From contig OZ024742.1 of assembly GCA_964016885.1 (NCBI GenBank), forward strand, positions 336,660,001-336,724,000: 64,000 nucleotides of DNA, given 5' to 3'. Positions within the stretch are counted from its first letter, which is position 1. Each line of letters begins with the position of its first letter. Positions 6,219 to 44,505 of the stretch are shown piece by piece. A program made the position numbers and the translations under genes. The stretch is from Eledone cirrhosa. Lineage: Eukaryota. The notes under the pieces were generated by a model that had not been told where the DNA came from, searched no databases, and was given only the letters and a program-made list of their open reading frames with translations.

Positions 6219-7753
6219 GCAAAAGTTCTATTTAAATTGTTGGGATACAACAAGCAAATATTTTTATAACTGATATAAAGCACTCGACAAATATTTGGAG
6301 TAGATATACGATGTTAACAAATGGAAACTATATTTATAATACCATATTTATTTCATTATATATATTTCAAGGATACCAAGTTAAATTATGGTATGCCTTC
6401 ATCAGACAAAATACAATATATAACAGTTTTATAAATAGACATTTTCAAAAGTTTGTCCTTTCAATATCTTGATTAAAATATACGTAAGATAAATTTCTAT
6501 ACTAAATATATTAAACATATTATTTTAACTTAAAATATTCTATAATATTTTGGGATATTTTAGTATTTTGATGTTTGTAGAATTCGTTTGCCTTTTAAGT
6601 TATATTGATATAATTATATTTCCAAGATATAATCCTTTTGTATTTTATATACTCAATTGTACTATGTTATATATTGATGTATACTTATGTCTATATACGG
6701 CTTATGTATCTATATATGTGTATTGACATACATATACATGTATTATATGCTTTTTTATGATTATATGTCTGTCTGTATATATGCATGAGTGACGCGTGTT
6801 TACCAATTGAAGATGCACACACATATCTATTCATGTATAGCTAAGAATTATGGATGAGAATGTACAGGCTTACACATGCAGTTTTTGATTGCAGATATGC
6901 ATAACTTAACAGCCATAAATGCATGAAAGTTAATCCTATATATTTATATATATATACTAAAAATGTTTAATTAATAACACAAGGAATGTATAGCAATAAA
7001 TAAAAAATCACTTATGCTTTGTATGTATATGTTATATGCGGGAGTAGATATAATGTGTATTTTCCGAGCGTGTGTGTATATATATATTTATGTATCTTTG
7101 CCTATGTGTACGTGATATACGATAGATAATCTCTCTAGCAATATATATATTTTATAATGTTTAAATTCCAATTTTTAATATATTGATCTCAATTTTTAAA
7201 CTAAATATCTAATCATAATTAAACAATGTGTAATTTCTCATATTATATATCTATATTCCATTCATGAATATTAATATTTCTAATTTTATTTATTCATTTC
7301 ATCCCAATTGTTAACTCAACTTAATATAACATATCTTAAGGTTTTCGTTCTCTCCCCCCTCTCTCTATCTCTATATATCTCTCTCTTGAGTTTTTTTCTC
7401 TGTCTGATGGTTTGATATCTCCCCGTTATTTTCCTTTGTTCTCTTTTCTTTTTGCTTTCTTCTTTTTCTTTATCTATCTCTCCCTTTCTTTTCTCCACGT
7501 TTCTCTCTCTCTCTCCATCTTTTTACTTACTCTTAACACTATGACTTACTAAAGTAAACAAATAACTATCCTGATGGCATCCCAAAACAACGGTCACCTT
7601 TTTAAAAGGGTACGTCAATATCTATTTATAAAACTGTTATATATTGTACTTTGTCTGATGAAGGCATACCATAATGTAACTTGGTATCCTTGAAATATAT
7701 ATAATGAAATAAATATGGTTTTATAAATATAGTTTCCATTTATTAATATCGTA
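6219..7753. mobile_element. Non-coding fold-back PLE (family A) with two HHRs
   Basis: About 6307-6440 is the inverse of about 7620-7753; tail 6219-6306; HHRs at 6349-6413 (-) and 7647-7711 (+); (AT)n on both sides. Confidence 0.8.
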
Positions 7754-7876
7754 TATATATATATATATATATATAAAACCCATTTATTAATATCGTATAT
7801 ATATATATATATATATATATATATATATATATATATATATATATATATATATATATATATATATATATATATATAT

Positions 7877-8515
7877 AAAACCCACATCGCTAAACTATTT
7901 TTTAATGCTCTTGATAATCGCTTCCCTAGAACACATAGGTATCACTCAATTTTCAATAGACATACTATAAAATTAACCTACTCATCCACCAAAAATTTAG
8001 CACAAAATATTAATAGAATAAATAATAGGAATTTAAAACCTAGCCAAAATACCGATAATAGCATAAATAATATCCAAGTTAACAAATGTAACTGTAGAGA
8101 TAGATCTAAATGTCCGTTAAATAACAATTGCTTAGTTAAAAATATAATATACAACTGTAATGTTAAAACGGACTTAAATTCTTTTAACTATGTTGGTTCC
8201 ACCTCAACAGAATTTAAACTTCGCTATAATAACCACAAGAATTCTTTCACAGATCCAAGCAAAAAATCCTCAACATCACTATCAAGTCTACTCTGGCAAC
8301 TTAGGCATGATAACGTTGGATATTCAACGGCTTGGAATATAGTCTCAAGAGGGATTCCTTTTAATTCATCCTCTGAGACATGTGACCTCTGCGCGGAGGA
8401 GATATTCTTTATACTAAAATCTAAAAATTCCCTTAATTTACGGACAAATTTATTCAGTTGCTGCAGACATAGATTGAACTCAACTTTTAAATATAAATAT
8501 AAATTTAAAATGTAG
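7877..8515 (+). pseudogene. PLE linker plus GIY-YIG endonuclease; uninterrupted 212-codon frame with no start codon (absent from the ORF track)
   Basis: Manual translation: ...[21 protein letters not shown]...KCNCRDRSKCPLNNNCLVKNIIYNC...YVGSTSTEFKLRYNNHKNSF...TSLSSLLWQL...WNIV...CDLCAEEIFFI...LNLRTNLFSCCRHR...stop. Confidence 0.9.
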
Positions 8516-42094: not shown

Positions 42095-42330
42095 TGATCA
42101 TGCCTTTATTTTTAATTTCATTTGTCCGTTTCCTCTCACCTCCTTTTTGCTATATGTCTCTCCACCACTCCCCTACACACCCTTTGAACTCTCTTCCCAC
42201 ACACTTTTCACCTGAAGAAGGGCTTATGCCCGAAACGTCGTTCCCCACCCCACCCCACTCTCAAGAGCGTGAAATTAATAAACCTTTGTTCGTACTGCCT
42301 CTCTGTTTTGTTCCTGTTCAATTTTTCACA
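42095..42330 (+). mobile_element. 3' fragment of the Poseidon-like PLE with an intact minimal HHR core
   Basis: CTGAAGA-AGGGCTTATGCCC-GAAAC-GTC at 42212-42239; similar to 41560-41700. Confidence 0.8.
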
Positions 42331-42808
42331 ATATATATATATATGGGATAACAAGTTATCGTTATAGGTTATCCACTTAGAGGCAGTCCAGTTAGAGTAC
42401 TCCGTTTTGTGGATGGTTTTAACGTACGGCTTAGTTTGACTCAACAAGACGCTTCGATAGTGATGCAGCGAGCTCGCGGTAATTGCTATGCAGGTTATAC
42501 TTGGAGTAATAATAGTTAAAGAAAGAAGAGTAACATGGTTGGCTGTACAATAAGGGCTTTATTCAAAGTGCTGACAATTGTTTCGTTGATCTGGTGCGTA
42601 TAGAGTTCGCTAATCGCTTGATGCTGCGTCAATCGTTCTCCAACGTATTGGCCAAATGAGCTTTCTGGCTTAAGACAGACTTTAGACTTTTATATATATA
42701 TGTATATATATATATATATATATATACATACATACATACATACATATATATATATATATATATATATATATATATATATATATATATATATATATATATA
42801 TATATATA

Positions 42809-44505
42809 TAGGAACCAGTAAGACCCCGACAGCTGAGCTCAAGCCGTTTCGACGGCTAATTCTGGACTAAATGAAAGTTTATCCTGGTATTTAAATAGCC
42901 GATCTTCTCAAGGGGTAATTCCATGTATGGTCAAAGTGATTGTCAAAAATCAGTAGTAATTCTGTGGTTGCAAATTAGTAGGGGAGATGGTGGCTAAACC
43001 TGCCAGTAGGAGAAAGAGGGGAGGGGGTGGAGTAGACCCAATCAAGCGTTGGTAGTGCCAGCTACAGCTGGGCATGAGGTCAAAGAAGATACAGGGGAGG
43101 GGGAGGGGGAGGAAGTCGGAACGGTAGGTAGAACAAAGGGTAGAAATAGGAAAGAAAAAAAAATACTGAGAGTGAAGAAAGGCAAATAAGTGTAAAGAAA
43201 AGTAAAGTAAATTAAATTCTACGACCTAGGTGTCAGGCTATTGTTAGGCGAGAATAAAATAAAGAAAGAAAGAAAGAAGTAAAAAAAGAAAGAAGTAAAA
43301 AAATAAATAAATGAATAAATAAGGAAATAAGTAAGAGAACTAGGTGGGACGAATAAGGCAAGGACCCTGTTAAGAGGTATAAGTACGTAAATGATACGGT
43401 GACGGGTCAACAAAAGGGGCCAAAATACTAAAGAGACTACCACGAAATAAACAATAAAGGTTTCCATCCCGGGCCAGCAACGACCCAGTGCAGCAAAGTG
43501 AACTTGTACGAGATAATAATTCTGAGTCCCGAGAAAAATATATACTAATGCTAACTCTAAAAGATCTAAAACAAGCTACATGAAAGTTCGTACGAAATAA
43601 AGGTAGAATACGGAGAAATAAATTTAGAATCCACCCCGCCCAGAAGAAGAGCGAAGCAAGAAATACTGAAACGAAAAAATAAGGCATGTGCCACTAAGAA
43701 ATATAGAGGGCACAGAGAATAGTGGGAGCGGTCGGAAAAAGGGGGAAAGTATCCGGGGTCTAAGCCAGCTGCTATAAAGGGCGGAGTCCGCCAAATCTAT
43801 CAAAGACTAGGGGAGGGGGGGGGGGGGTACTGAGGCTACATGGGGCCAAAGGGCAGCCTCGGGTGGGCGAGAAAAGACGCCGACAAAGGAGAAGAGCTGG
43901 GGTAGAAGGACAAAGGGGAGGGGGGGAAGGAAATAAAGGAAGCGATAAAAGAATACAAAGAAGATCTTACGTCTTCCTTGGCAAGCAGGGGTTACCTATT
44001 GCAAAATCGGCAACTGGGGTGTTATAGCCCCAGTCTACCCCCCCGGGTCATTATGGGGTTTGAGGGCGAGGTAAGTCCTACGCAATCTATGTTTACATTT
44101 GTTCTACCTACCGTTCCGACTTCCTCCCCCTCCCCCTCCCCTGTATCTTCTTTGACCTCATGCCCAGCTGTAGCTGGCACTACCAACGCTTGATTGGGTC
44201 TACTCCACCCCCTCCCCTCTTTCTCCTACTGGCAGGTTTAGCCACCATCTCCCCTACTAATTTGCAACCACAGAATTACTACTGATTTTTGACAATCACT
44301 TTGACCATACATGGAATTACCCCTTGAGAAGATCGGCTATTTAAATACCAGGATAAATTTTCATTTAGTCCAGAATTAGCCGTCGAAACGGCTTGAGCTC
44401 AGCTGTCGGGGTCTTACTGGTTCCTATTACCCACTCTACTACCTCAAGTATTGAGTACTTTGGTGCGTTATGGTCCACCTGGTTCCTTACCACATTTCCT
44501 TCGTT
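42809..44505. mobile_element. Large family D element: about 330-bp inverted arms, 1-kb spacer, tail and two U3:A8 HHRs
   Basis: HHR 44319-44412 ACCCC-TTGAGAA-GATCGGCTA...TAGCCGTC-GAAAC-GGCTTGAGCTCAGCT-GTC-GGGGT; mirror at 42823-42916. Confidence 0.9.

Follow-up and report, generated by a model that had tools for sequence, protein, structure and literature searches.

Head-to-head Penelope-like element insertions with two family-fixed ends in the genome of Eledone cirrhosa

Penelope-like elements in the window

The window analyzed in this study, a stretch of 64,000 nt from the genome of Eledone cirrhosa, carries a set of inserts in (TA)n, made up of 3' ends of Penelope-like elements (PLEs) facing head to head; PLEs are the sister group of telomerase. 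An insertion of this kind consists of two arms: one arm has no tail and stops at a family-fixed end, designated S, and the other carries a tail with a fixed outer end, designated L. Endpoints are given as the last base belonging to the element only, together with the bases in common with (TA)n. Judging from sequence, families A, B and D are of the Hydra type and family C is of the Neptune/Nematis type; family E was placed with the PLEs by architecture only, with no ORF or tandem master among the 66 matches listed.

In family A, the insertion at 6219..7753 has its tail arm on the - strand (L end 6219, hairpin 6283-6300, hammerhead core 6365-6405) and its S arm on the + strand (hammerhead 7655-7695, S end 7751 plus TA). 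The 5'-truncated family A copy at 7880..10103 (+ strand) is without an inverted arm and contains a GIY-YIG endonuclease (EN) frame (7880-8515) nearly identical to that of master L159, followed by a hammerhead (9916-9957), an S site read through at 10014, a hairpin (10023-10040) and the L end (10103). The near-perfect palindrome at 14223..14681 extends from an L end at 14223 (- strand), with a hairpin at 14285-14302 (- strand) and the S site read through at 14311, across a centre near 14495 to an S end at 14679 plus TA. At 7754-7880, the S end of family A is also repeated once more in a short tandem together with (TA)n; this duplication adjoins the 5' junction of another A copy, which begins with TA microhomology. 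The family B insertion (1964..5259), located outside the range 6219..44505 covered by the original prediction, has a tail arm on the - strand (L end 1964, hairpin 2022-2044, hammerhead 2106-2152), a Hydra-type RT frame (2886-4067, - strand) and an S arm on the + strand ending at about 5251-5259.

Family C is present as an insertion at 22159..23484, with a tail arm on the - strand (L end 22159, hammerhead 22386-22414, GIY-YIG frame 22717-23475) and an S arm of 34-38 bp ending at 23480 plus ATAT, and as a palindrome at 31976..32930 (S end 31980 on the - strand, L end 32930 on the + strand). The frames noted above in A, B and C are the PLE coding pieces inside these inserts. A PLE RT fragment (YVDD type) similar to the family C master protein lies at 15778-16770 (- strand), separate from both C insertions. 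Family D has mini-insertions at 30525..30720 (S end 30528 on the - strand, hairpin 30650-30671 on the + strand, L end 30720) and 33836..34028 (L end 33836 and hairpin 33885-33906 on the - strand, S end 34025 plus TAT), and a larger insertion at 42808..44504, with an S arm at about 42808-44097 (- strand) and a tail arm at 44098-44504 (+ strand; hairpin 44434-44455). Family E has a palindrome at 30919..31294 (L end 30919 on the - strand, S site read through at 30984, S end 31290 plus TATA) and a copy at 34414..34627 (S end 34623 plus TATA); this copy has no tail arm, and its left arm joins another repeat family.

The original prediction stated that independent copies of one family stop at the same nucleotide. 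All nine endpoints were indeed found, seven of them exactly as predicted (7753 and 14681 in A; 23484 and 31976, the latter being 31980 minus ATAT, in C; 30525, being 30528 minus TAT, and 34028 in D; 31294 in E) and two shifted by 1-2 bases (42808, or 42811 minus TAT, for 42809 in D; 34627 for 34625 in E).

Besides these inserts, family F-like hammerhead arms were observed at 1429-1820 and 34192-34418, the latter fused to a family E arm; the apparent end of family F is often read through. Hammerhead-like stems with a core other than CUGANGA are present in the D arm at 44320-44410 and the E arm at 31190-31230, and more copies of the bulged hairpin described below lie in tails of other families at 15293-15317 (+), 24319-24342 (-) and 33322-33340 (-). 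Pieces of other retroelements (18376-19455, -; 39573-40352, +; 28479-28814, -), a SINE-like dispersed repeat family (11481-11676, 11912-12131, 16756-16867, 26083-26296, 46116-46283, 48182-48641) and a tandem array of about 14 kb (49400-64000), of which the A/C-rich unit reads like a Thr/Pro/Ser-rich mucin-type coding repeat, make up other parts of the window.

Full units were identified elsewhere in the genome for D (L031), A (L159 and L170) and C (L253). In all of these the ORF was found, on reading by eye, to carry an RT (YRDD or YVDD) followed by a GIY-YIG-type domain, as in EN+ PLEs, and each master ORF (D, A, C) has one frameshift. According to the available parts of PMC8557442 and PMC3846280, the canonical EN+ PLE insertion has partial tandem pLTRs, an adjacent inverted 5'-truncated copy and a 30-40 bp tail at one end. 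Self-alignments of L031 and L159, together with the pairing counts given below, agree with this layout, and L031 has exactly this form: an inverted 2156-nt copy ending at S, a pLTR, the ORF, a pLTR and the tail. Head-to-head arms and a tail at one end are further points of agreement, as are putative hammerheads in the A, B and C arms; in contrast, tails here measure 38-162 nt across 21 families and stand on exactly one end almost always, instead of being "optional" as in those descriptions. The canonical hammerhead core gave 19 matches (1.6 expected) in arms of A, B and C, and no match to this core pattern in arms of D and E. In Rfam no hammerhead was found among the 150 of 293 matches listed, which were hairpin or microsatellite matches below the gathering score. 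At L146:3258-3959, a retrozyme-like short tandem of family C was observed, about 450 nt in size and internally deleted.

Pfam gave a weak RVT_1 match below cut-off as the sole match for the C master, and Pfam and PDB sequence searches gave no name for the Hydra-type proteins; cephalopod records are among the named relatives of the D protein. The A and D proteins carry the DKT motif, a CxCx5C linker, CxxC and CxH around E/N, and no CCHH, and A and D have (TA)n targets, in agreement with the Hydra clade of C-terminal EN+ PLEs as described in the accessible portion of PMC8557442. At the RWK position they differ, with RWR in both A and D (RWK is found in the relative P0043), and the same portion of that description contains no initiation hairpin. 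The Hydra evidence for family B is a YRDD RT fragment and the common hairpin only. In the L253 frame of family C, both a CX2-5CxxC linker and the CCHH of the C-terminal endonuclease are readable, as in the Neptune/Nematis type. Genome-wide, exact matching gave at least 9,985 arms of A, 28,697 of C, 31,953 of D and 13,067 of E, and a 17-mer query gave at least 59,683 arms of D.

Two fixed ends and their pairing

The end positions were counted in 1.50 Mb of sequence, made up of 260 loci merged with the window. Most loci were picked via anchors located 5' of S, so that the choice is blind to end type, and mostly from contig C1, while loci L001-L030 were drawn by a tail-containing query; 12 family E loci (L241-L252), having been picked by end type, were excluded from later counts. 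Among 494 arms, 460 end at one of the two sites, 240 of them at S and 220 at L (one D arm counted as L being a tandem master); the rest are 16 with a tail and another end, 15 unclassified and 3 cut by the locus edge. This concentration at S and L is far beyond chance, and over hundreds of copies the S end is fixed as predicted, not broadly spread.

Among 157 adjacent head-to-head pairs, 143 are clean, that is, have no long TA run inside. The combination S+L accounts for 128 of these, S+S for 1 and L+L for 1, and 13 have an unclassified or cut end. For family D, the genome-wide count behind one prefix was 24,950 S ends against 25,067 tail read-throughs. S corresponds to the inner edge of the PLE tail already described by others. 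The prediction took the other end to be the RNA 3' end, with a single internal site; six tandem masters indicate instead that L is a second internal site with the same features as S, TA sharing included. The bases after L in tandem masters are AT (A, B), ATAT (C, U), TAT (D) and TA (G). De novo clustering yielded 33 S/L cluster pairs, of which 21 were kept as families, the rejects being internal TA runs and chimeras.

At most ends, 1-5 nt of TA are common to element and target, in line with the predicted TA microhomology. The mean overlap with (TA)n over 25 junctions was 2.9 nt (1.2 by chance), and 21 of the 25 have at least 2 nt (22% expected; Fisher p ~1e-6, the families not being independent); one has 1 nt and three, poorly located, have none. 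Families F and V, with doubtful S/L pairing, were left out of this and the inner-stem analysis. The proposal that the site is chosen as a mimic of the target did not hold, because longer internal TA runs stay unused: of 125 A arms, 124 continue past perfect TA runs of about 9 nt located 40-60 nt upstream, and so do 87 of 89 E arms. TA homology alone is thus insufficient to set the site, and mimicry as the sole determinant was ruled out.

The same runs bear on the idea that the ends arose after insertion, either by microsatellite slippage trimming them to internal TA or by copies spreading as finished units through segmental duplication. All ends do adjoin unstable (TA)n, and the D mini-copies look alike. 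Nevertheless, all 6 comparisons made within families showed window copies with the same end to have unrelated flanks (local scores of 19-25 across 300 nt). The turning points differ at the level of single bases, and trimming would not yield one S and one L per insertion. The pairing rule and the unused TA runs refute an origin of this kind, by slippage trimming or by segmental duplication, and we consider it hardly credible.

A duplicated hairpin beside the ends

The Hydra-type families share a bulged, covarying hairpin, RCUC…UN-GAGY, whose first base lies 6-11 nt 3' of S. The motif CTC-stem-loop-stem-TN-GAG was found at this distance in 12 of 21 families. It occurred at 14 of 4292 offsets elsewhere and, in the genome, at 52 of 15,008 positions; p-values over families are overstated, the families being related. 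When no stem filter was applied, an inner stem of at least 3 bp was present in 13 of 15 cases, with 0.6 expected. The hairpin is also located +7 to +10 nt 3' of L in the masters of A, B and D (3 of 4 masters), with B lacking the inner stem there; G has a different small stem after L, without CTC. The outer pair in A and B is A-T after S and G-C after L. In C and U the motif is absent at both ends, and under the strict test 9 of 21 family pairs, including C and E, are without it, K having a form with a 1-nt bulge. The hairpin is therefore not a general PLE rule.

As an out-of-sample set, 79 unrelated Hydra-like loci from metagenomes, found by protein similarity, were analyzed. The hairpin was present in 41 of them, in 24 as doublets 58-74 nt apart, with 75 hairpins in sense and 10 in antisense orientation, and was found in 0 of 321 ORF windows. 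TAT or ATA lies 6-11 nt upstream of 54 of the 75 (background 23%). In metagenome loci L341, L343, L289, L346, L348 and L349, TA runs begin about 45-56 or 112-125 nt after the hammerhead core, a spacing that S and L ends would be expected to show in other hosts.

RNAalifold analysis of all 13 motifs with an 11-nt interior gave one common bulged fold with 91 of 91 cells paired and 13 two-sided changes, a number reached in 0 of 500 shuffles; the four outer pairs are invariant across the alignment. Single hairpins are no more stable than shuffles (z -0.5 to -1.6). G-U pairs outnumber A-C pairs 7 to 2, which weakly favours a fold of the sense RNA strand.

This lean of the wobble pairs to the sense strand speaks against the main rival explanation, trimming at S and L by the endonuclease, in which a longer DNA intermediate would be resolved by a GIY-YIG enzyme that reads the hairpin or tail as DNA and cuts at an adjacent TA-like site, S and perhaps L being cleavage sites. 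The Drosophila virilis endonuclease needs the tail for recognition, as recounted in the accessible text of PMC11167929, and the TA-like bases at S and L suit a cut site as well as a primer site. Two tails, however, were kept in only 1 of 143 pairs, and the starts observed in vitro in the one PLE tested coincide with the tail boundaries, according to the same text. Taken together, we regard endonuclease resolution as unlikely.

Two arms, their template and their possible origin

In families A, C and D, the arms of 105 S+L pairs were placed on the masters, 88 of these pairs having a junction gap that did not exceed 30 nt. Of the 88, 48 have arms equal in length to within 10 nt, 23 have a longer L arm and 17 a longer S arm (by up to 3 kb), indicating that the two arms of one insertion extend independently. 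The tail-less arm, supposed in the prediction to be the short one, is thus often the longer, as at 42808-44504, where it reaches 1368 nt into the element and the tail arm 408. The turning point, expected to vary, is broad in A and C; in D it is clustered, with 62 of 80 inner ends in a 14-nt interval. This interval lies 134-147 nt away from the tail end, where an initiator-like site follows a TATA-like box by 29 nt.

The two arms of one insertion resemble each other more closely than they resemble other insertions (distance 0.53 versus 5.27 in A, 1.35 versus 3.5 in D), a likeness reached in 0 of 5000 permutations in each of four families, and among A pairs spanning more than 600 nt the arms are identical in 12 of 15. 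By this likeness, the arms of one insertion appear to share a template; later gene conversion could partly cause the identity. Private variants in common, and the 48 of 88 pairs that are near-perfect palindromes, are also what fold-back would give, in which a single L-primed cDNA snaps back, copies itself and stops at S. The S arm must then lie within the L arm, and yet S is the longer in 17 of the 40 asymmetric pairs. These pairs largely refute simple fold-back, which is in our estimation very unlikely.

These PLEs insert into (TA)n with one S arm and one L arm. The reading that we consider fairly probable is that both ends are RT start sites, directed in the Hydra type by the hairpin. For protein binding, priming, the single template and joining, we infer the following scheme. 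The RT/EN protein would read the hairpin as RNA, bind two neighbouring RNA signals (two hairpin copies in the Hydra type) and nick both strands of the (TA)n target. Each nicked 3' end would pair by a few bases, in telomerase style, with the UA-rich stretch that immediately precedes one hairpin, and prime one cDNA, so that there would be one priming event per target strand, with both cDNAs from one RNA or one source locus. The two cDNAs would stop independently, in D often together at the presumed 5' end of the RNA, and be joined head to head. The tail would represent the distance between the two signals, and its presence on one side would be explained, since the two signals would set the start sites, one per target strand. 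In a stronger form, which we put forward tentatively and hold a little short of probable, the duplicated clade-wide hairpin would be a two-site loading signal for an RT/endonuclease dimer, and double priming would be obligate, with both nicked (TA)n strands on one RNA under a telomerase-like alignment of 2-5 nt and without the usual second-strand priming, so that every insertion would be born as an inverted pair.

The original prediction proposed a mechanism similar to twin priming, of which a defined second event at a fixed internal site, with one S and one L, agrees well with the pairing and the independent extension of the arms. In twin priming of L1, the second target strand primes at an internal RNA site and gives an inversion with a variable junction; the inverted and direct pieces do not overlap, and the second site is variable. 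Here, in contrast, the two arms are copies of one region and neither site varies, so that the likeness to L1 itself was not borne out.

A closer parallel is PAc, a Poseidon-clade PLE of Anolis, for which the accessible text of PMC11167929 reports in vitro cleavage and extension of both target strands, with RT starting at two internal sites bracketing the tail. Two internal starts around the tail, the use of both strands and an AT-rich target are common to PAc and the elements described here. PAc, however, starts in an AC-rich stem-loop without homology to the target, whereas the ends in this study share 2-5 nt with (TA)n and lie just 5' of a duplicated CUC/GAG hairpin, a hairpin not seen in the stretch of PAc RNA given in Fig. 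S1 of that paper.

One-sided tails, head-to-head repeats and two internal starts have already been described (PMC11167929, PMC8557442, PMC3846280, PMC4209133, PMC13282606 and bioRxiv 10.64898/2026.07.22.740005, in their available parts). In its basic form, the rule corresponds to the PLE tail of these descriptions, of which the proposed double start set by hairpins would be a variant. No report of the duplicated hairpin or of the one-S-one-L rule was found in the literature searched, and subscription papers, Repbase notes and supplements may hold either.

The origin of inverted PLE copies with a one-sided tail is an open problem according to the accessible portion of PMC8557442. An RNA signal, a fixed offset and the rule of one S and one L turn this problem into a question for mutagenesis. 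Together they also allow PLE ends to be called across tens of thousands of copies, and they might delimit the minimal cis element needed for target-primed insertion on two strands.
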